64,000 bases of DNA from Candidatus Latescibacterota bacterium (GTDB taxonomy: Bacteria; Krumholzibacteriota; Krumholzibacteriia; WVZY01; JAKEHA01). The stretch covers positions 27,899-91,898 of the forward strand of contig CAVTNQ010000003.1 in NCBI GenBank assembly GCA_963736125.1. Reading direction: 5' to 3'. Below the pieces are notes generated by a model that saw nothing but the letters and a program-made list of their open reading frames with translations, did not search any database and was not told the DNA's origin. Each line of letters begins with the position of its first letter. Position 1 is the stretch's first letter. Below are positions 27,138 through 64,000 of this stretch, one piece after another. The position numbers and the translations under genes were made by a program.

Positions 27138-29783
27138 ATGACGAGTTGGATCGGGAAATCGATCGCGCATTATCGCGTCACCACACAAATCGGCGCGGGC
27201 GGAATGGGGGAAGTGTATCGCGCGAAGGATTCGCGCCTGGGTCGCGACGTCGCCATCAAGGTGTTGCCGGAGGCGTTCGCCGCCGATCCGGAACGGATGG
27301 CGCGCTTCGAACGCGAGGCGAAGGTGCTCGCGTCCTTGAGCCACGCTCACATTGCCGGCATTTTTGGATTGGAAGAAACGAACGGCACGCGTGCCCTGGT
27401 GATGGAACTCGTGGACGGCCCGACCTTGGCCGAACGCATCGCGAAGGGTGCCGTTCCCCTCGACGAGGCGCTTCCGATCGCCAAGCAAATCGCGGAAGCA
27501 CTCGAGTACGCGCACGAACGTTCCATCATTCACCGCGATCTCAAGCCTGCAAACGTGAAACTCAGCGACGCCGGCGTCAAGGTGCTCGACTTTGGCTTGG
27601 CGAAAGCGCTCTCCGACGAGGTGAGCGCGTCGGGCTCCGACCTCACCAAATCTCCCACGCTGACCGCGGCGTCGACCAAGCTGGGTGTCATTCTCGGCAC
27701 GGCGGCCTACATGTCGCCCGAGCAGGCCAAAGGAAAAGCAGTCGACCGTCGCGCCGACATCTGGGCCTTCGGTGCGGTGCTCTTCGAGATGCTGACGGGC
27801 CGGCAAACTTTCGCGGGCGAGACGGTGTCGGAAACGCTGGCGTCCGTCATGAAGGACGAGCCCGATTGGAAATCATTGCCCGCGTCGACGCCTTCGCGCG
27901 TGCGCGATCTGTTGCAGAGGTGTTTGGTCAAAGATCCCAAACAGCGCTTGCGCGACATCGGGGACGCGCGCATTCGCCTCGAAGAGGAATTGTCGGGTGC
28001 GCCCGACGCAACCGCGGCGACGACGGCGGCAACACCCGCGAAACGACGCGGCATCCCGGTGGTCCCGGCCGCGATCGTGGCACTCGTGGCCGCGGCGATC
28101 GGTGTGGGCGCAGGACGGGTGCTGCGAAAGCCCGCGGCGCCCCCGATGTTCCAGGCCACGCTGACGTTTCCCGATGAAATGCGCCTCGACGAAGAGAACG
28201 CGTCGGTTGTCATCTCGCCCGATGGACGAACGGTGGCGGTGGCGGCGTCGGCAAAGGATCATCCGCAACAACTCTGGCTCCGCCGTTTCGACAGCGACGT
28301 GTCGACGCCCATCGTAGGCACCAACGGCGCCACCTATCCGTTCTGGTCGCCGGACGGCCGCTTCGTCGGTTTCTTCGCCGATCGTAAGCTCAAGCGCGTG
28401 CCGACGAACGGGGGCACGGTGCAAACCATTTGTGACGCTGTCGACGCGCGTGGTGCGAGCTGGAGCGAGAAAGGCACGATCCTCTTTTCTCCGGGCCCTC
28501 TCACGGGTCTCGAGATCGTCCCGGCGTCGGGCGGGACTCCGCAATCTCTGACCACACTCGAAAAGAACGGCGAAACGCACCGCCTGCCCCGCTTTCTCCC
28601 CGGCGGGAAGCGCGCACTCTTCGTGGTGGGATCCGCCGACCTCGCTCCGGGGCATATCGAGTGTCTCGACATCGAGTCCAAGAAGCGCACGCCGGTGACG
28701 GAATGCCAGTCGGAAGCTCGCTATCTCGGAACCGGTCACCTTGCGTTCATGAAGGACAAGAATCTCGTGGTTCAGCGCTTCGACGCGTCGTCCTTGAAAC
28801 TGTTGGGCGAGCCGGTGCCAATCGCGGAGTCGGTCCAATTCAATGTCTATCGTTACACCGGCGGCTGGGACATCTCCGAGCACGGCGCGTTCGTCTACAC
28901 CACGGGTGTGGGAGTCGAGAATGGTCAGCTGACCTGGTTCGATCTCGAGGGCCAGGAGTTGGGAACTTTGGGGACTCCCAACCCCGTCATCGGGCTGGAT
29001 ATCTCGTCAGACGCGCAGCGGGTGGTGACGTCTGAGCGTGCGGAGCAGTTCGACCTCTGGATTTGGGACGTCGCGAGGGGCGTGCGCACGCGCTTCACCT
29101 TCGGGCCCGAGGCCGCCACCAATCCAATTTGGTCACGGGACGGTCGCACGATCTATTTCGGCACTGGATCGGGAACCGTCTTCGCCAAGTCCGCCGACGG
29201 CGCGGCCGCAGCCACGAAGATTTACGAACTCGCCGACACGTGGGTCGTTCCCGAGAGTATCTCACCGGACGGAAAGGAATTGCTTCTGTCGACGCAGTTG
29301 CGCGAGACGGGGACCGACATTCTGGTGATGACGTTGGGAGACTCGGCCGAGCCGCGTAAACTTTTCGCGTCACCCGCCAACGAGGACAACGCGCGGGTGT
29401 CGCCGGACGGGCGTTGGGTGCTCGTCACGAGCGACGAGTCCGGCCGGGAGGAAGTGTACGTGTATCCGTACCCGTCGTTACAGGGCCGTTGGCAAGTGTC
29501 GTCGGACGGAGGGAGCCACGGAGAATGGCTTCCCGGCGGGCGTGCGATTCTGTATCGCGCACCCGACCAGCGGCTCCTCAAAGTCGACGTGCAAGCGATC
29601 GGAGAGAGTTTTCAGATCGGGGAGGCGAAGACGATTTTCGGGAAGCGCGCGGTCCCGAATGTCGGCGAGCCTGCACACGATGGAAAACGCCTGCTCGTTG
29701 CCGTTCCGCAAGGAGGCAGCTCGCTCACGCTGCACTTGGTAACGGACTGGCGTTCGCTGTTGGCCGGACGCGGAAGCGAATGA
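27138..29783 (+). CDS. Ser/Thr protein kinase with TM helix and TolB-like beta-propeller (paralogue)
   Basis: IGAGGMGEVY, VAIK, HRDLKPAN, DFGLAK, MSPEQ; TM; FWSPDG/SPDG repeats. Confidence 0.92.
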   Translation: MTSWIGKSIAHYRVTTQIGAGGMGEVYRAKDSRLGRDVAIKVLPEAFAADPERMARFEREAKVLASLSHAHIAGIFGLEETNGTRALVMELVDGPTLAERIAKGAVPLDEALPIAKQIAEALEYAHERSIIHRDLKPANVKLSDAGVKVLDFGLAKALSDEVSASGSDLTKSPTLTAASTKLGVILGTAAYMSPEQAKGKAVDRRADIWAFGAVLFEMLTGRQTFAGETVSETLASVMKDEPDWKSLPASTPSRVRDLLQRCLVKDPKQRLRDIGDARIRLEEELSGAPDATAATTAATPAKRRGIPVVPAAIVALVAAAIGVGAGRVLRKPAAPPMFQATLTFPDEMRLDEENASVVISPDGRTVAVAASAKDHPQQLWLRRFDSDVSTPIVGTNGATYPFWSPDGRFVGFFADRKLKRVPTNGGTVQTICDAVDARGASWSEKGTILFSPGPLTGLEIVPASGGTPQSLTTLEKNGETHRLPRFLPGGKRALFVVGSADLAPGHIECLDIESKKRTPVTECQSEARYLGTGHLAFMKDKNLVVQRFDASSLKLLGEPVPIAESVQFNVYRYTGGWDISEHGAFVYTTGVGVENGQLTWFDLEGQELGTLGTPNPVIGLDISSDAQRVVTSERAEQFDLWIWDVARGVRTRFTFGPEAATNPIWSRDGRTIYFGTGSGTVFAKSADGAAAATKIYELADTWVVPESISPDGKELLLSTQLRETGTDILVMTLGDSAEPRKLFASPANEDNARVSPDGRWVLVTSDESGREEVYVYPYPSLQGRWQVSSDGGSHGEWLPGGRAILYRAPDQRLLKVDVQAIGESFQIGEAKTIFGKRAVPNVGEPAHDGKRLLVAVPQGGSSLTLHLVTDWRSLLAGRGSE

Positions 29784-57865: not shown

Positions 57866-57941
57866 GGGCGAATAGCTCAGTTGGTAGAGCGTCTGCTTTA
57901 CACGCAGAAGGTCACAGGTTCGAGCCCTGTTTCGCCCACCA
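57866..57941 (+). tRNA. tRNA-Val (anticodon TAC)
   Basis: GGGCGAA acceptor pairs with TTCGCCC. D-loop AGTTGGTA, anticodon loop TTTACAC, T-loop GTTCGAG, encoded CCA; 76 nt. Confidence 0.97.
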
Positions 57942-58075: not shown

Positions 58076-58105
58076 TTGACATGCCCTTTCGATCCGTGGT
58101 AGAAT
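58076..58105 (+). promoter_or_regulatory. Strong sigma70 promoter (extended -10)
   Basis: TTGACA (58076-81), 18 bp, TGn-TAGAAT (58100-05); ~125-nt 5' leader. Confidence 0.75.
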
Positions 58106-58234
58106 TTTGCCCGGTCGAGTAAGGTGTCGTTTTACCAACGGTGGAGGGAGGTGGGCTGTCGGCGAGCATTTCGCCGGCGGCAGGCTTCTCATATAAATGG
58201 GCCATCACCACAACCACTTTTTGGAGGTGTAGGA

Positions 58235-58873
58235 ATGTTGAAAGGAAAGTTCGCTGTGCTATCGCTTGCTGCGGCGGCTTTGCTGTGCCTGCAGTTCGCG
58301 GGCGTCAACACCGTCAATAGCGGTGTTGTCGATCCGTGTAATTCCACGGCCAGCGGTCCGGCGGGCGTTATCTTCGCGTGTCCGCAAAACGACGGCGACC
58401 TACTGGGCGCTGCCGGTTTGACGATCAACGTCACGGTGAAAGACAACGTCAACGCTCCGGTCGTCGGCGTTCCCGCGGCAGACATTTGGCTGATCGGTTG
58501 TAACGATCTGCTCGGTCTGTGCGGCGGAAGCGGCGCGATCAACGCGTCGGCGGCGACGGACATCAACGGTCAGACGACGATCACTGGCAAGATTGCGGCC
58601 GGCGGCTGCGATCTCGGTGGCGTTCGCGTGGTCGTTCAGGGTGTTGTCGTCGGCGCAGGTGTGTGCGCTGCTCCGTGCGTGGCAATCAAGGTCAAGTCGG
58701 CGGACATTAACAAGAACCTCGTCGTCAACCTGGTCGATTTCGCGACCTTTGGCGCAGGCTACACGTCGCCGCCGAAGCCGTACAACGAGTGCATTGATTA
58801 CACGGCACCGTTTGGTACCGTGACGTTGCCGGACTTCGCAAAGTACGGCTCGCACAATAACCACACGTGTTAG
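58235..58873 (+). CDS. Secreted Cys-rich Ig-like (Big_1-like) plus dockerin-like protein
   Basis: Signal peptide; TINVTVKD...PVVGVP...ATDINGQTT (invasin/Big_1-like); two EF-hand-like repeats DINKNLVVNLVDFATF and DYTAPFGTVTLPDFAKY. Confidence 0.7.
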   Translation: MLKGKFAVLSLAAAALLCLQFAGVNTVNSGVVDPCNSTASGPAGVIFACPQNDGDLLGAAGLTINVTVKDNVNAPVVGVPAADIWLIGCNDLLGLCGGSGAINASAATDINGQTTITGKIAAGGCDLGGVRVVVQGVVVGAGVCAAPCVAIKVKSADINKNLVVNLVDFATFGAGYTSPPKPYNECIDYTAPFGTVTLPDFAKYGSHNNHTC

Positions 58874-58947
58874 TGGGCATAGCGGCGTAAGTGACTCCTA
58901 AATCGTTTGCGACCGTGACTTTGCAGTTATAAAAGGAGTTTGTCGCT

Positions 58948-59520
58948 ATGAAGAGAGCTCTAGCAGGGGTGCTTGCAATCGCGTTCGTCGGCCTGATGGC
59001 CGCCGGTGCGACGGCGCAGGTGCCTTTCTTCCAAGTGTATTTCGACGATGACAGCAACGGTAGTTACGGTGAGACGCAGGCATACTGCGGCGCGCCTCTG
59101 GCGTCACAGAACCTGTATCTCGTCCTCCTGAACGCCAACACGTTCGTGGTGGCCGTCGACTACCAGGTGTCATTCCCCCCGGCGTTGTTGTTCGTGTCGG
59201 ATAACTATCCGACCGTTCCGGGTGGCTCGCTGAACCTCGGCGATTCGTTCCAAGGCAACGCCGTTTCGTACGGCCTGCCGCGTAGCGGGTTTTCGCCGAT
59301 GCTCGTGACCACCATGTCGACCCTTTGGACGGGCCAATGCGATTGCGCGACTCCGTCGCCGCTTGCGGCTGGCGGATATCCCGGCAAGTCATCGCCTGCG
59401 TTCGTTCGCTGGCCGGACTATGTAGAGTTTGCGGCGGTCGGTATGACGTCGTTGCTCTGCCCGGGTCCTGTGTCGACGCGTTCGACGACGTGGGGTAGTG
59501 TCAAGGCGCTGTACCGGTAG
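58948..59520 (+). CDS. Secreted cohesin-like beta-sandwich protein with C-terminal TWGSVKALYR
   Basis: Signal peptide, beta-rich, 4 Cys, conserved tail shared with the next two genes. Confidence 0.7.
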   Translation: MKRALAGVLAIAFVGLMAAGATAQVPFFQVYFDDDSNGSYGETQAYCGAPLASQNLYLVLLNANTFVVAVDYQVSFPPALLFVSDNYPTVPGGSLNLGDSFQGNAVSYGLPRSGFSPMLVTTMSTLWTGQCDCATPSPLAAGGYPGKSSPAFVRWPDYVEFAAVGMTSLLCPGPVSTRSTTWGSVKALYR

Positions 59521-59540
59521 TTTTGAACGTGATTGAAGTG

Positions 59541-59611
59541 GGCTGGATGAACCACGAGTTATCGGGTTCATCCACGACACGCGAACAGCGGTTCATCCAG
59601 CCTTCGTTTTT
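59541..59611 (+). terminator. Terminator-like hairpin with an alternative internal pairing
   Basis: GGCTGGATGAACC (59541-53) pairs with GGTTCATCCAGCC (59590-602), followed by TTCGTTTTT. A second GGTTCATCC sits at 59565-73. Confidence 0.55.
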
Positions 59612-59638
59612 AGCTCCAGTCCTGAAGGAGAAAGCGTA

Positions 59639-60199
59639 ATGAAAAAGGTTCTATTGATGACGTTGGCTCTGATGGTGTGTGCCATGCCGGCACTCGCCGA
59701 CCATATCGGCGTGTTCCAGGATACGGGCGGCACGAATTGCGTCATGACGCAGTTCCTCCCGTTCCCGACCCCGAACGCGATGTACATCGTCCACAAGTTC
59801 AACCCGGGTTCGACGGCCGCGCAGTTCAAGGTCAACGACCTGTCGGGCTTCATCGCCTCGGCGCAGACGACGCCGTACTTGGCGCTCGGCACGTGGAACA
59901 CCGACCTGTCGCTGGCTTACGGCGGCTGCGTCGTGGGTGACCACGTTCTGATGACGTTGAACTTCTTTGTTGTTACCCCTCCGGGGAACTGCGCCTCGAC
60001 CCTCCAGATCGTCCCGGCTCCGACTTCGCCGATCCCGGGTGCGGTTGCACTCGTCGACTGCGCGTCGCCGAGCGGCAATCTGAAGCCGGCGAGCGGTGGC
60101 AACATGTACTTCTTCGGTGGTTGCGTCGATCCGGCGGCTTGCCTCCCGACCGGCGTTTCGAACAAGACGTGGGGCGGCATCAAGGCCCTCTATCGCTAG
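59639..60199 (+). CDS. Secreted cohesin-like protein with C-terminal TWGGIKALYR
   Basis: Signal peptide, TAAQFKV, AYGGCV, PAPTSPIPG, VDCASPSGNL; AAGGAG RBS. Confidence 0.72.
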   Translation: MKKVLLMTLALMVCAMPALADHIGVFQDTGGTNCVMTQFLPFPTPNAMYIVHKFNPGSTAAQFKVNDLSGFIASAQTTPYLALGTWNTDLSLAYGGCVVGDHVLMTLNFFVVTPPGNCASTLQIVPAPTSPIPGAVALVDCASPSGNLKPASGGNMYFFGGCVDPAACLPTGVSNKTWGGIKALYR

Positions 60200-60229
60200 T
60201 CTAGGCTAGAGAGACCAAGATTCTGTTTC

Positions 60230-60276
60230 GAGACGCGCCCGGGTCGCTCAAACGACTCGGGCGCGTTTCTCTTTTG
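60230..60276 (+). terminator. Intrinsic terminator
   Basis: GAGACGCGCCCGGGTCG/CGACTCGGGCGCGTTTC stem followed by TCTTTT. Confidence 0.75.
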
Positions 60277-60471
60277 TAGAGGAGAAGCGGGCGCTCAATG
60301 GGCGACGTCGCGACTATTCGCGACGTCGCGAGTGACAGAAAAACCGCCACTTGTCCAACCGGCGGCGCGGGCGCGATCGGGCGACTGCGCCGCTTTTGAT
60401 TGCAGGCGGTGCTAGTTACCCGATCCCATGCGCGCGGCACATGCCTTGCAGAAGCAACCCCTTGAAAAATC

Positions 60472-60501
60472 TTGACAGTCCCGAGGAGCGGGGAGGATAT
60501 T
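60472..60501 (+). promoter_or_regulatory. Probable sigma70 promoter for the third TWG-tail gene
   Basis: TTGACA, 18 bp, GATATT. Confidence 0.45.
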
Positions 60502-60667
60502 CGGCTCGTCGAGGAGGAAGACGGGCCGAGCCCGACGGATTGCTCGAGATTCGTTTACAAAAGATGCGGCCGGCCAAGTGAGGTCCCTTCGCCCCGAGGG
60601 CCGGCGTCGGAGCTCCGTGAGGAATACGTTCATGGGGTTCACGGTTCTGGCAAAAGGAGCAAATATC

Positions 60668-61234
60668 ATGAAGAAGTTTGTGCTAACGGTTTTGGCGATC
60701 GCCGTCATGGCGGCGCCCGCCGCCGCGCAGGTCGGCGACATCAGTATTTATGCCGACGCCGCGGGGACGAGTTGCAACGTCGCCGACGTGACGGGCCCGT
60801 TCGTCTTCAAAGACGTCTTTCTGCTTCACAAGCACACCGGTGGCGCGACCGCGGCGCAGTTCAAGGTCAGCTTGACCGGCGGATCCACGATGGCGTTCTC
60901 GTCGCAGACCATACCGGCCGGGATGTTGAACCTGGGCAACGCGAACGACGACATCTCGATTGCCTATGGCGGCTGCGTGCAGGGTGACTTCCTGATTCTG
61001 ACGGTCACCTATATCGCATTCGGAACCAGCCCGGCGTGCGGGGCCATCGTGCTGGAGCCGGCGGCAACGTCGCCGATTCCAGGCGAGATCGCCATGGTTG
61101 ATTGCGCGATTCCGAGCGGCAACCTCGCGGTGGTCGGGAACGGACAGGCGAACATCAACCCGGACGTGACCTGCCAGTGCGACGTCGCGATACGTACGAC
61201 GACGTGGGGCTCTATCAAGGCGCTCTACCGATAG
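60668..61234 (+). CDS. Secreted cohesin-like protein with C-terminal TWGSIKALYR (paralogue of 59639..60199)
   Basis: Signal peptide, TAAQFKV, AYGGCV, PAATSPIPG, VDCAIPSGNL. Confidence 0.72.
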   Translation: MKKFVLTVLAIAVMAAPAAAQVGDISIYADAAGTSCNVADVTGPFVFKDVFLLHKHTGGATAAQFKVSLTGGSTMAFSSQTIPAGMLNLGNANDDISIAYGGCVQGDFLILTVTYIAFGTSPACGAIVLEPAATSPIPGEIAMVDCAIPSGNLAVVGNGQANINPDVTCQCDVAIRTTTWGSIKALYR

Positions 61235-61257
61235 CCCGGTTCGCGAATTGGATTGTT

Positions 61258-61296
61258 CGAAGGGCCTCCGTGCAAACGGGGGCCCTTCGTGTTTTG
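61258..61296 (+). terminator. Intrinsic terminator
   Basis: CGAAGGGCCTCCGT-GCAA-ACGGGGGCCCTTCG followed by TGTTTT. Confidence 0.78.
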
Positions 61297-61323
61297 CAAC
61301 CCCGCGTATCTCCGGAACTCGCC

Positions 61324-61352
61324 TTGACACGGTCCCCCGGCGCCGCTAGACT
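61324..61352 (+). promoter_or_regulatory. Sigma70 promoter for the C25 peptidase gene
   Basis: TTGACA, 17 bp, TAGACT. Confidence 0.75.
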
Positions 61353-61430
61353 TGTGTTCGACGCTACCTTTACGCCCCTAGACAACCCCTCTGGCGTAAC
61401 TTCAATTTGATTTATCAGAGAACTAGACCG

Positions 61431-64000
61431 ATGCCGGCCCGAACGTTCCTCGTCGCGACCGCCGGTGCCCTCGTGCTGTCCGTGTCGTCGGCTCGCACGG
61501 ACGCGGCGCCGAAGGGTGCGCGTGTGGCACCCGCCACCGTCGTCCAGTCGGACGCGTCGCGGGCGCGCTTCGTGGTCGACGTCCCTCGTCCGACCTTTTT
61601 GCCCTCGCCGGCACTGCCGGGCTTCGAGCGGATCGCCCTGTCGGGCTTCGAGGCCACCGGCAATCCGGGGCAGCCACCCCAGTTGTCGCGCCGCTACATG
61701 GTGGCACTTCCGCCCACCGGCACGTATGCCGTGAGCGCACGCATCCTGGCGTCGGAGCCGCTCGGATCGCACCGCTTGGAGCCCATCGCTACGCCCATCG
61801 TTATCGAAGGCGACCAAGAGATGGGCCCGACCACGAGCGAGCGCGTCGATTGGAACGAAGCGACCTACCTGGGGTGGGTCGCCCCCGACATCGCCACCTA
61901 CGACACGCCTGCGTTCATTCGACGCCAGCGCGTCCTCCCGCTCGCGGTCAATCCCGTTTTCTACGACGTCAAGACCAACGAGATCGTGGTGGCGACGCGC
62001 GTCGAGATCGACGTCCGCTTCGACGGCGGCTCGTCGTCGCGAGCGCCAGCCGCTCCCGCCGCGCGCGACGAACAATGGAACGACGTCTTCGGCCGTATGC
62101 TCGTCAACGCGCAGCAAGCACGCGCGTGGCGCGCGCCCAAGCCGGCGCTCGCGTCGAGTGCCGCCACGATGGCACGCGTCGCTCCGGGAGCGGTGAAGCT
62201 GCGCGTGCGCGACACCGGCGTGCACAAGGTCGCGGCCGCCACGTTGCTCGCCGCCGGCTTCCCGGGCGGGCAGCCGGTCGACAATTTGCGGCTGTATCGA
62301 CGCACCTACGACGACAACACGCTGACGGCGGGGGAAACCGAAGTACCGCTTTACGTGCGCGAAGGCACGGGCGGTGTCGCGGGCGTGTTCGATGCCAACG
62401 ATCTCGTCGTCTTCTACGGACTGCGTTTGCGCGACGACGCCACCCAGGGCGACACGCGCGAGCAGTACTCGTTCACCAATACGTATTGGCTGGAACCCGG
62501 GGCGGGCACACCCATGGCGACGCGCACGCCCGCGCCCGGCTTCGTCACCGCGGACACGACGACCGCATTTTTTGCCGCCACCGCGCACTTCGAAACCGAC
62601 GCCTACTTCCGCGACGGATCCACCGCGGCGTCGAACGATCTCTATTACTTCAATTCGGGCCGGGAGGCGGGGCCGGTCGACATGCCCATGACGATCGGCG
62701 CCATCCGCCCGGGCGGGAACCTCGGGATCATCGCCGAGCTGCACGGGCAGGTGTACAACCCGCCGTTGACCGCGCGCACCATCCGCCTCTCGCTCGTGAA
62801 TGGGACGGGCGAGACCGTGCTCGACGCGGCCTACACCATCAATAACAAGAACCGGCAAACCTACACGTCGGCGCCCATTCCAGCGGCCGCCGTATCCGTC
62901 GGCGCCAACCAATTTCGCGTCGCGCGTCCGCCGCTGGCGACGCGTTCCAGCGTCGAAGTGCTGATCAACTTCGTCGACGTGTCGTACGGCGCGTTGTACC
63001 GCGCGCGCGGCAACACGCTGCGCTTCAACACGGCGACGTTGGCGGGCGACACCAGCATCACCGTGACCGGTTTGTCGTCGACCACGGACTTCGAGCTGTT
63101 CGACGTCACCGCACCCACCGCACCGGTGCGTTGCATCACCGCACCGTCGAACTTCACCGCCGTGCCCGGCGGATTCGCGTTCTCGTTCCGCGAGAACATC
63201 CCGTCGCGGCGCGAATTCGTCTTGACGCCGGTCGCGCGCATGATCGACATCCCTGCCGCCGACGTCCTCCTGGACACGCCGAGTGCCATCATCGGCAGCC
63301 CCGCCGAGTCGGGCGTCGACGTGCTGGTGGTGGCGAATTCGATCTATCTCGCGCAGATGCAGACGTGGGCGACGTATCGCCGCGCGCAGGGCTACCGCGT
63401 GCTCTTGGTGGACGCCGACGACGTGTTCGACGAGTTCAACGGCGGGGTGTTGCACGCGCGCGCCATCCAGCGCTTCGCGCGTCATTTCTTCGAGCGCGGC
63501 GACGCCAGCGCCTTGGTTCTGGTCGGCGATTCGTCCGAGGACCACAAGCTGGTGCACTCCGACTCGGGCCCCAACTTCGTGCCGACCTTCACGCGCATCG
63601 ACTTCGTCAACGGCAGCCCGCCCATCGACGAGGTGGTGACCACCGACAAGCGCTTCGTCAAGCTGCCCGGACCCGGTGGCGCCCCCGCCGACGAGTACCC
63701 GGACATGATCGTGGGCCGTTTGCCGGTGGGCTCGACCACCGAGCTCGACATCGTCCTTACGAAGATCTTCGGGTTCGAAGCGCCGACCGCTTCGGAGTTC
63801 TGGCGCAAGCGCATGATCATCGTGGCCGACGACGAGTACTCGGAAGGAAGCTCGGCGTTCGGCCAGGCCTTTCGCTACTGCTTCACACCCGGCGAGAGCG
63901 GCTTCCAGGCCGGTCAGGAACAGACGGCGCAGGTCATCGAGAACTCGCTGCCCGCGGGCTACGACGTGATTCGGTTCTACTTGAAGGACTACACCTCGTC
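61431..64000 (+). CDS. Peptidase C25 (gingipain family), PorU-like; truncated by window edge
   Basis: Manual translation from ATG 61431: signal, C25-propeptide-like GNPGQPPQL..YMVALP, PorU-like VKLRVRDTGVHKV and FYG...YSFTNTYWL, then C25 core VDADDVFDEFNGG, LVLVGD, FVPT, DMIVGRLPV, IIVADD. Absent from the ORF track because it has no stop inside the window. Confidence 0.85.
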   Translation, partial: MPARTFLVATAGALVLSVSSARTDAAPKGARVAPATVVQSDASRARFVVDVPRPTFLPSPALPGFERIALSGFEATGNPGQPPQLSRRYMVALPPTGTYAVSARILASEPLGSHRLEPIATPIVIEGDQEMGPTTSERVDWNEATYLGWVAPDIATYDTPAFIRRQRVLPLAVNPVFYDVKTNEIVVATRVEIDVRFDGGSSSRAPAAPAARDEQWNDVFGRMLVNAQQARAWRAPKPALASSAATMARVAPGAVKLRVRDTGVHKVAAATLLAAGFPGGQPVDNLRLYRRTYDDNTLTAGETEVPLYVREGTGGVAGVFDANDLVVFYGLRLRDDATQGDTREQYSFTNTYWLEPGAGTPMATRTPAPGFVTADTTTAFFAATAHFETDAYFRDGSTAASNDLYYFNSGREAGPVDMPMTIGAIRPGGNLGIIAELHGQVYNPPLTARTIRLSLVNGTGETVLDAAYTINNKNRQTYTSAPIPAAAVSVGANQFRVARPPLATRSSVEVLINFVDVSYGALYRARGNTLRFNTATLAGDTSITVTGLSSTTDFELFDVTAPTAPVRCITAPSNFTAVPGGFAFSFRENIPSRREFVLTPVARMIDIPAADVLLDTPSAIIGSPAESGVDVLVVANSIYLAQMQTWATYRRAQGYRVLLVDADDVFDEFNGGVLHARAIQRFARHFFERGDASALVLVGDSSEDHKLVHSDSGPNFVPTFTRIDFVNGSPPIDEVVTTDKRFVKLPGPGGAPADEYPDMIVGRLPVGSTTELDIVLTKIFGFEAPTASEFWRKRMIIVADDEYSEGSSAFGQAFRYCFTPGESGFQAGQEQTAQVIENSLPAGYDVIRFYLKDYTS

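Follow-up and report, generated by a model that had tools for sequence, protein, structure and literature searches.

A short C-terminal tag on secreted proteins of Krumholzibacteriota, encoded beside a PorU-paralog peptidase and cohesin-like and dockerin-like proteins

Organization of the locus

Near the end of the 64,000-nucleotide stretch analyzed here (the "window" throughout; positions 27,899 to 91,898 of contig CAVTNQ010000003.1), five genes of a Krumholzibacteriota bacterium, g1 to g5, are encoded together on the plus strand, between a tRNA-Val gene and unrelated downstream genes (Table 1). The first encodes an Ig-like plus dockerin-like protein; g2, g3 and g4 encode cohesin-like proteins that terminate in the same short tag; and g5 encodes a C25 cysteine peptidase that is a paralog of PorU, the sortase of type IX secretion (by the T9SS). 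The tag is the main subject of this article. In the 3.5-Mb genome to which the window belongs (C1, C2 and C5 below are contigs of this genome) it terminates many otherwise unrelated secreted proteins, and it very probably acts as a signal, whether for sorting, for anchoring or for docking.

A preliminary description of this DNA had proposed five co-oriented genes for secreted proteins, with near-consensus promoters and strong terminators, and both proposals were borne out. Signal-peptide-like N-termini are found on all five products, sigma-70-like promoters precede g1, g4 and g5, and intrinsic-terminator-like hairpins follow g3 and g4. The region holds 4 sigma-70-like sites compared with 0.9 expected from shuffles. 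Both hairpins are long, GC-rich and followed by T runs; the total of terminators in the region is no higher than in shuffled sequences. Ribosome-binding sites (GGAGG or AAGGAG) are present ahead of g1 to g4, and g5 starts at either TTG (61407) or ATG (61431). GC content falls from ~0.68-0.70 to ~0.58-0.60 over g1 to g3. Open reading frames (ORFs) downstream of g5 are unrelated, with no match to PorV-like proteins, to the T9SS C-terminal domain (CTD) or to the tail.

Table 1. Features at the g1-g5 locus, in window positions
Feature	Position	Strand	Remarks
tRNA-Val (TAC) gene	57866-57941		directly upstream of g1 promoter
Sigma-70-like promoter before g1	58076-58105	+	TTGACA, 18 nt spacer, TAGAAT, extended -10 TG; 11/12 matches
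g1, secreted Ig-like (X-module-like) + dockerin-like protein	58235-58873	+	212 aa
g2, tail-bearing cohesin-like protein	58948-59520	+	190 aa
C-terminal tag of g2	59464-59517	+	GPVSTRSTTWGSVKALYR
g3, tail-bearing cohesin-like protein	59639-60199	+	186 aa
C-terminal tag of g3	60143-60196	+	LPTGVSNKTWGGIKALYR
Intrinsic-terminator-like hairpin after g3	60230-60269	+	17 pairs, then T run
Sigma-70-like promoter before g4	60472-60501	+	10/12 matches
g4, tail-bearing cohesin-fold protein	60668-61234	+	188 aa
C-terminal tag of g4	61178-61231	+	CDVAIRTTTWGSIKALYR
Intrinsic-terminator-like hairpin after g4	61258-61289	+	hairpin plus T run
Sigma-70-like promoter before g5	61324-61352	+	10/12 matches
g5, PorU-paralog C25 cysteine peptidase	61407-64000, continuing to window-equivalent 65561	+	1384 aa

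A portable tag at the C-termini of secreted proteins

The translated C-termini of g2, g3 and g4 read TWGSVKALYR, TWGGIKALYR and TWGSIKALYR. That the three genes share this decapeptide had been recognized in the preliminary description and is confirmed; the decapeptide is not private to them, however, and the conserved signal is longer. When the regular expression WG.[IVLM]K.[LIVM][YF] was run over the genome in six frames, a genome-wide check of the kind that had been suggested for this tail, 42 matches were obtained where 0.13 were expected from composition, and 41 of the 42 sit 1-5 residues before a stop codon. Every one of these 41 ORFs begins with a signal peptide, of the lipoprotein type in two, and their median length is 213 aa. 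Alignment on the tag Trp extends the conservation to ~17 residues, P-[VL]-[PAS]-[TVA]-x-x-[ST]-T-W-G-x-[IV]-K-[AS]-[LM]-Y-R, in which P-[VL] occupies -8/-7 relative to the Trp, a Cys is often found just upstream, and the linker is rich in small residues. As a peptide, the C-terminal stretch can be represented by ...CPGPVSTRSTTWGSVKALYR, and Arg is the terminal residue of 34 of the 41 proteins.

Trimmed of their tails, the 41 carriers fall into 22 BLAST clusters, comprised of one family of 16, two families of three and 19 singletons. The family of 16 is the cohesin-like family, g3 and g4 included. Pfam names found among the singletons include cupredoxin, CHRD, the lamin-tail domain (LTD, in two proteins), right-handed beta-helix and DUF7450. 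The tag carriers span at least 20 unrelated families. A lipoprotein (C5:88702-90264) consists of two SnoaL/DUF4440-like units, the first ending in an internal, degenerate tag (SRTLGAMKSLYAG) and the second in a true tag (SRTATWGAIKALYR), which suggests that the tag was included when the unit was duplicated.

Short, unstructured and strictly C-terminal sequences common to unrelated secreted proteins are the hallmark of sorting, anchoring or docking signals, and on these grounds the assignment of such a role to the tag made above is strong. Two familiar classes of C-terminal signal were considered and rejected. The beta-signal of outer-membrane proteins places an aromatic residue at the end of a beta-barrel, whereas the tag ends in Arg in the great majority of proteins and its carriers have folds of the soluble type (cohesin-like, cupredoxin, CHRD, LTD). 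Tripartite signals of the LPXTG, PEP-CTERM or GlyGly-CTERM type are excluded by the end of the proteins 1-5 residues past the motif. The tag has no match among Pfam or NCBIfam models (release of June 2026), and a search of the full-text literature found no description of the motif, nor of Krumholzibacteria or Eisenbacteria with a T9SS.

The tag as an alternative to the T9SS C-terminal domain

Proteins of this genome also carry the conventional T9SS signal, a CTD of ~80 aa that Pfam labels FlgD_ig/Por_Secre_tail. A local CTD model, seeded from the C-termini of the C25 proteins of the genome, recognized a CTD at the C-termini of 144 ORFs, whose median length is 708 aa, and matched no ORF among the 41 with the tag; the view that the tail is distinct from the ~70-80-aa CTD used in the same genome holds up. 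Related proteins may nevertheless carry one signal or the other. In a tandem pair of LTD proteins, the CTD-bearing C1:36100-37005 and the tail-bearing C1:35260-36006 are 67 % identical over 186 residues and part directly after a common ACNP. Similarly, two cupredoxins that are 56 % identical are encoded by the adjacent, divergently oriented genes C1:57147-57905 (CTD) and C1:56625-57095 (tail). Passenger domains of one kind thus occur with both signals, and the tag behaves as a "choice of anchor" alternative to the type A CTD. Genes for the two kinds of protein also tend to be neighbors: 15 of the 41 tag genes are within 1 kb of a CTD gene, whereas 500 random trials gave 7.2 on average and 16 at most, and for eight tag genes a CTD gene on the same strand lies directly upstream.

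Two groups of CTD cargo encoded near tag genes are worth recording. A family built of ~45-aa "...DIYAQRV..." repeats (C1:595055-598492, C1:609103-612669, C1:725805-728213 and C1:497260-499341) is not named by Pfam apart from its CTD; in three instances a same-strand tag gene follows, and the gene at C1:497260 is convergent with one. The other, C2:994745-996511, encodes a peptidyl-arginine deiminase of the Porphyromonas type (PAD_porph, 7.8e-31) that carries a T9SS CTD, and is divergent from a gene for a CHRD protein with the tail, C2:994075-994740.

Cohesin-like proteins g2, g3 and g4

AlphaFold2 (AF2) models were made for g1 and g4. The g4 model has a predicted local distance difference test (pLDDT) score of 79.5, with a confident core (residues 24-163, ~90) and a tail (residues 170-188) that scores ~50 and is not packed on the fold; the tag itself is drawn as a low-confidence helix. 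The predicted structure has the nine-stranded jelly-roll beta-sandwich topology of cohesins, and all of the top 35 PDB matches returned by Foldseek are cohesin modules (E 5.7e-6 to 5e-4, probability 1.0). The best match is 5nrk_A (E 5.7e-6), and the TM-score on target for 2jh2 is 0.68-0.72. On the modeled structure, then, g4 is a cohesin-fold protein. The tail is kept in 37 of 37 metagenomic homologs of g4.

At the sequence level g2 has diverged considerably, being 22 % identical to g3 and 34 % to g4. It belongs to a divergent subfamily whose conserved place is directly behind g1, and profile-profile comparison (hhalign) of g2 with the g4 family gives a probability of 99.8 % and an E of 6e-29, a score to which the signal peptide and the tail contribute. 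The cohesin-like trio of the preliminary description is thus upheld by the fold of g4 and by the homology of g2 to g3 and g4, but not by any sequence that reaches the Pfam cohesin threshold. Since g1 to g4 all lie below Pfam and NCBIfam thresholds, the labels "cohesin-like" and "Ig + dockerin-like" are valid for the folds and for orthologs, and not as curated family membership.

As g2, g3 and g4 are paralogs, a common C-terminus would be expected of them in any case, and the five genes might simply be a lineage-specific cluster of secreted paralogs that form no functional system, the tail being no more than a conserved strand at the end of a domain they share. The tail lies outside the predicted fold, the same tail occurs on at least 20 families unrelated by BLAST, and the three-part gene order of the locus is kept across two phyla, all of which speaks against this explanation; a conserved last strand was rejected as an account of the tail on the first two of these grounds, and the explanation as a whole is very improbable.

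The dockerin-like protein g1

The g1 protein carries neither the tail nor a CTD and has a conserved Cys at its end. Its AF2 model (pLDDT 86) consists of a beta-sandwich (residues 39-156) and two helices (167-176 and 199-208). Compared with the PDB by Foldseek, the model best matches the X-module-dockerin (XDoc) dyad of C. thermocellum CipA, 2b59_B (E 7.7e-4, probability 0.98), followed by 5g5d_B, 4fl4_L and 3kcp_A; TM-scores to XDoc dyads are 0.27-0.35. The predicted fold thus resembles that of an XDoc protein. Alignment reveals an internal duplication, DINKNLVVNLVDFATFG (also given as NLVVNLVDFATFG) and FGTVTLPDFAKYG, and the first Ca-type loop, DINKNLVVNLVD followed by FATFG, fits the pattern D-x-N-x-N-x3-N-x2-D. 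Orthologs of g1 from other families have canonical DxNxDGxVNLSD loops, and one ortholog, in genome G074, passes the Pfam Dockerin_1 cut-off (24.0 bits against 22.9), while another reaches 17.5 bits. The dockerin-like designation given to g1 at the outset is thus sustained by the XDoc fold matches and by an ortholog above the Dockerin_1 cut-off; g1 itself remains below every Pfam threshold.

Elsewhere in the genome, paired canonical dockerin repeats (DANLDGNVTMADA ... DVDCSGLVTPRDA) are found in three large CTD cargo proteins, C2:681858-685328, C2:687361-690360 and C2:1811980-1819299. The first two begin with a cohesin-like domain homologous to g4 and look like adaptor scaffoldins.

The g5 peptidase, a paralog of PorU

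In g5 a gingipain-type propeptide-like N-domain (Propeptide_C25) precedes the C25 domain, and a CTD of the FlgD-Ig/T9SS type A ends the protein. Its Peptidase_C25 (PF01364) match has an E of 1.5e-32 on the part within the window and scores 172 bits in the genome search, and its PDB matches include PorU of P. gingivalis (6za2, E 4.7e-19) as well as the propeptide of Kgp. The CTD is recovered by the local CTD model but scores only 19.6 bits on TIGR04183 (cut-off 23); it ends in RGKVSKLQ, akin to the RGKMSKIR of PorU and unlike the KMVLLK of ordinary cargo. Because this CTD resembles the one that PorU itself retains, g5 is best regarded as T9SS cargo.

Six C25 genes are present in the genome. The true PorU, C2:1642784-1646947, scores 549 bits on the PorU equivalog model NF033707 (cut-off 420) and is encoded directly upstream of the best PorV-like gene; PorV-like genes are found on C2 at 728445-729413, 1641726-1642730 and 1931842-1932642, and none near g5. 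Four further C25 proteins, of ~1570-1720 aa, are ordinary CTD cargo. The g5 protein itself scores 184.2 bits on NF033707, below the equivalog threshold, and fails NF052324 ("PorU2") with 107 bits against a cut-off of 450. A literature lead to "PorU2" proved to be a false match, the name PorU followed by a superscript reference. In a maximum-likelihood tree, g5-like sequences form a clade of their own (SH-aLRT 100), in which all 18 sequences keep the catalytic His and Cys. The surroundings of these residues differ: the g5-like clade has Q[SG]HAN and GCH (QSHMN and GCH in g5) where PorU has GHG and SC[TAD]. What had been described as a PorU-like C25 peptidase therefore does have the C25 domain, the propeptide and the catalytic His and Cys, but is a paralog; identity with PorU was rejected because of the 184-bit score, the separate clade and the true PorU elsewhere.

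The intact dyad of g5 bears on a rival explanation in which the tag is never cleaved. It might be a docking peptide, in effect a minimal "dockerin", that binds non-covalently, as a strand or short helix, to an envelope receptor, for example a barrel of the PorV/PorQ type, a shuttle protein, a neighboring T9SS cargo protein's CTD or a non-catalytic site on g5; in one variant, tagged proteins hitch-hike through the T9SS translocon on a CTD-bearing partner. In its favor, the tag is conserved to the very C-terminus, with at most five extra residues tolerated and an end that is usually basic, like the ends of CTDs. The lack of structure of the tag in the AF2 monomer model, the enrichment of tag genes near CTD genes (including the eight directly downstream on the same strand) and the adjacent paralog pairs that bear one of each signal are also in keeping with docking. 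The conserved small-residue linker with its P-[VL], however, resembles a processing site, the conserved neighbor g5 is catalytically intact, and T9SS hitch-hiking has to our knowledge been shown for no cargo. On balance a docking peptide appears rather unlikely.

Several other genes related to PorU and its partners were encountered. One gene of the PorU clade from another genome (L172, G005:C131) has Arg at the catalytic His and Asp at the Cys column, and its branch is long. The sequence could be that of a PorU without activity, or of a paralog picked by mistake. C2:1931842-1936073 includes a 1112-aa protein with the variant CTD end KTFAIRR, directly upstream of a PorV/PorQ-like barrel gene, and may represent a PorZ-PorQ-type pair. 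The PorV-like gene C2:728445-729413 follows an ORF for a 1053-aa outer-membrane-protein-like product.

Distribution, co-occurrence and synteny

Tag counts across genomes were made from DNA patterns, which variants of the tag escape, and the names of the phyla compared are the labels of metagenome-assembled genomes (MAGs). The tag pattern was found in 201 of 208 species genomes of Krumholzibacteriota, with a reversed-pattern control near 0, and a looser pattern picked out 136 of the 151 genomes sampled from a second phylum (MAGs labeled Eisenbacteria). In a third, T9SS-bearing phylum, reached through a MAG labeled Zixiibacteriota, matches were at chance level, one each in 5 of 61 genomes. Genomes that had seemed to lack the tag within the two tag-bearing phyla proved to carry variants of it. 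The genus g68 was rejected as a tag-free control, its cohesin-like genes bearing SSLSQVKSLFQ, STLSGVKALFE and RSWGQVKQLFR, and so were the apparent negatives of the second phylum, where the tags read TTWGKIKMTYK and TTWEKIRATYR in G306 and G309, and TWSAIKALYK in G376. MAGs labeled "uncultured Fibrobacteraceae" or "Latescibacterota" (L025, L027, L039) were likewise rejected as signs of a wider distribution; such labels cannot be used for this purpose because the contig coordinates are identical to those of Krumholzibacteriota genomes in the GTDB-based set.

Two PorU-like genes are present in every tag-bearing genome examined, compared with one in 26 of 26 genomes of the tag-free phylum. By reciprocal BLAST these single copies score 268-367 bits with PorU as opposed to 111-161 bits with g5, and in the tree they group with the true PorUs (support 99). 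The g5-like clade was found in both tag-bearing phyla and is absent from the tag-free phylum.

Gene order is conserved as well. A dockerin-like gene followed by one to five tail-bearing cohesin-like genes and a g5-like gene is found in five families of Krumholzibacteriota (f1, f2, f4, f8 and f9), and the dockerin-like/cohesin-like/g5-like order also occurs in several genomes outside that phylum. A tag gene lies no more than 3 kb from a g5-like gene in at least 17 of 25 loci from both phyla, usually together with a dockerin-like gene. As judged from comparison of the genomes, the g5-like clade is linked to tagged proteins by synteny and by clade-level co-occurrence, and the tie between the tail and a C25 clade that the preliminary description anticipated is corroborated by both.

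These comparisons also bear on whether the tag might be an amphipathic C-terminal helix or strand that fixes Sec-exported proteins to the periplasmic face of a membrane, the adjacency of a C25 gene being incidental. The hydrophobic moment of the decapeptide is moderate whether it is taken as a helix (0.41-0.51) or as a strand (0.43-0.68), and does not separate the two forms; the low-confidence helix drawn by AF2, the two carriers that are lipoproteins and the typically periplasmic location of cupredoxins would also fit. Against this, mean hydrophobicity is ~0, and the invariance of Trp, Gly, Lys and Tyr over two phyla and ~40 families per genome implies recognition by a specific protein rather than by lipid. 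The passengers, moreover, are typical surface or adhesin families that swap the tag for a surface-anchoring CTD, and synteny with a PorU paralog holds in at least 17 of 25 loci. A membrane-fixing element is improbable.

A model for the module

Our analysis favors, with modest confidence, the reading that the cluster is a conserved envelope-assembly module of Krumholzibacteriota and the neighboring phylum, a diderm counterpart of the ScaE/XDoc/sortase system, in which the tag would serve to sort or anchor proteins and would probably be processed by the PorU paralog, an enzyme of the one lineage known to act as a "sortase" in these bacteria. Tagged proteins would be exported by Sec and would then fold with formation of disulfides. 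At the outer membrane or cell surface the PorU paralog would recognize the tag, probably cut the small-residue linker ahead of TWG, and either pass the protein to a surface glycolipid or hold it. Tagged cohesin-like proteins may in turn anchor dockerin-bearing proteins, namely g1 and the three large CTD cargo proteins with paired dockerin repeats, while g5 itself would be exported by the T9SS and held at the surface by its own CTD. The parts of this model differ in strength. The module is probably located at the surface; binding of g1 to g2-g4 as a cohesin-dockerin interaction is quite possible; and recognition or cleavage of the tag by g5 is put forward tentatively. The surface-layer form of the idea, as first proposed, was not upheld, as nothing points to a lattice of the S-layer type.

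A number of observations weigh against this model. At the level of sequence families, nothing in Pfam, Cohesin (PF00963) included, matches g2, g3 or g4 at E <= 0.1, and the NCBIfam scan was empty too; g1 scores below the Pfam Dockerin_1 (PF00404) threshold and has no Pfam or NCBIfam match, and its second Ca loop, DYTAPFGTVTLPD followed by FAKYG, is degenerate. TM-scores of g4 to cohesins are moderate, 0.43-0.52 on the query and up to 0.72 on the target. Of this genome's 41 tag genes, no more than 3 adjoin g5, and for this reason the synteny may reflect a link of g5 with the cohesin-like and dockerin-like proteins rather than with the tag. The co-occurrence of tag and paralog, furthermore, amounts to very few independent events, two related tag-bearing phyla against one that is tag-free, and no true tag-free genome was found within the tag-bearing phyla. 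Finally, PorU-type enzymes act at the cell surface, and we know of no outer-membrane route for a protein with a Sec signal and an 18-aa tail but no CTD.

Comparison with known systems

One close parallel is the type A CTD of the T9SS (TIGR04183/Por_Secre_tail PF18962, FlgD_ig-like) and the sortase that processes it, PorU (NF033707; 6za2), as in Porphyromonas gingivalis. There too a C-terminal signal is found on many unrelated Sec-exported families, the candidate enzyme is a C25 cysteine peptidase of the PorU lineage, the organisms belong to the same Fibrobacteres-Chlorobi-Bacteroidetes (FCB) group, and the passengers are interchangeable. The signals differ, however, in that the tag is a sequence of ~17 residues predicted to be unstructured, whereas the CTD is an Ig-like domain of 70-100 aa, and g5 differs from PorU in belonging to a separate paralog clade with altered active-site surroundings, in scoring below the PorU cut-off and in lacking an adjacent porV-like gene.

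In the cellulosome of Ruminococcus flavefaciens, the anchoring system consists of ScaE, the XDoc proteins ScaB and CttA, and sortase. The present locus resembles it, and the type II cohesin-XDoc pair of C. thermocellum CipA (2b59), in its single cohesin-fold module followed by a short C-terminal signal, in a partner built of an Ig-like X-module and a dockerin, and in a cysteine transpeptidase-type enzyme as the presumed anchoring catalyst. It differs in its diderm host, in the absence of LPXTG, of a membrane span and of attached cellulases, in an enzyme that is C25/PorU-like and not sortase A-like, and in sequences that fall under the Pfam cohesin threshold. Cohesin and dockerin modules outside cellulosomes are widespread in bacteria and archaea, and the Archaeoglobus fulgidus cohesin 2xdh is among the matches of g4. 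Those modules likewise occur in organisms with no cellulosome, but here they are coupled to a specific tag and a PorU paralog in a conserved, operon-like cluster.

Short C-terminal signals with dedicated enzymes include LPXTG/sortase, PEP-CTERM/exosortase, GlyGly-CTERM/rhombosortase and PGF-CTERM/archaeosortase. Like these, the tag is portable, lineage-restricted and present in many copies, its passengers (LTD, CHRD, beta-helix) are of the "choice-of-anchor" kind, and the co-occurring candidate enzyme is encoded once per genome. Unlike these, which consist of a motif, a hydrophobic transmembrane helix and a basic cluster, the tag has no hydrophobic span.

Significance

Pairs of a C-terminal signal and a dedicated enzyme organize the surfaces of bacteria, and with each new pair it has become possible to annotate hundreds of "hypothetical" proteins. 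The tag described here marks tens of secreted proteins per genome in two or more uncultured phyla, with a candidate enzyme encoded alongside. A more far-reaching proposal, which we consider doubtful in its full form but worth stating, is that the tag, in the broader form ...PVxxxx[ST]WGx[IV]Kx[LM][YF][RK], is the address label of a second, hitherto unrecognized, type IX-linked branch of surface display in Krumholzibacteriota, Eisenbacteria-type bacteria and related lineages, with ~17 residues in place of the 80-residue CTD. A dedicated PorU-paralog transpeptidase ("PorU-2") would recognize, cleave and attach the tagged proteins, which would be exported either directly via the translocon or by riding on CTD partners, and one product would be a Gram-negative scaffold of cohesins and dockerins in the style of the cellulosome. 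If this were true, the attachment machinery of the T9SS would have diversified outside Bacteroidota, and cohesin-dockerin assembly would be in use on diderm surfaces. A model of the tag would improve the annotation of these MAGs, and a short, portable tag for surface display might possibly prove useful for engineering.

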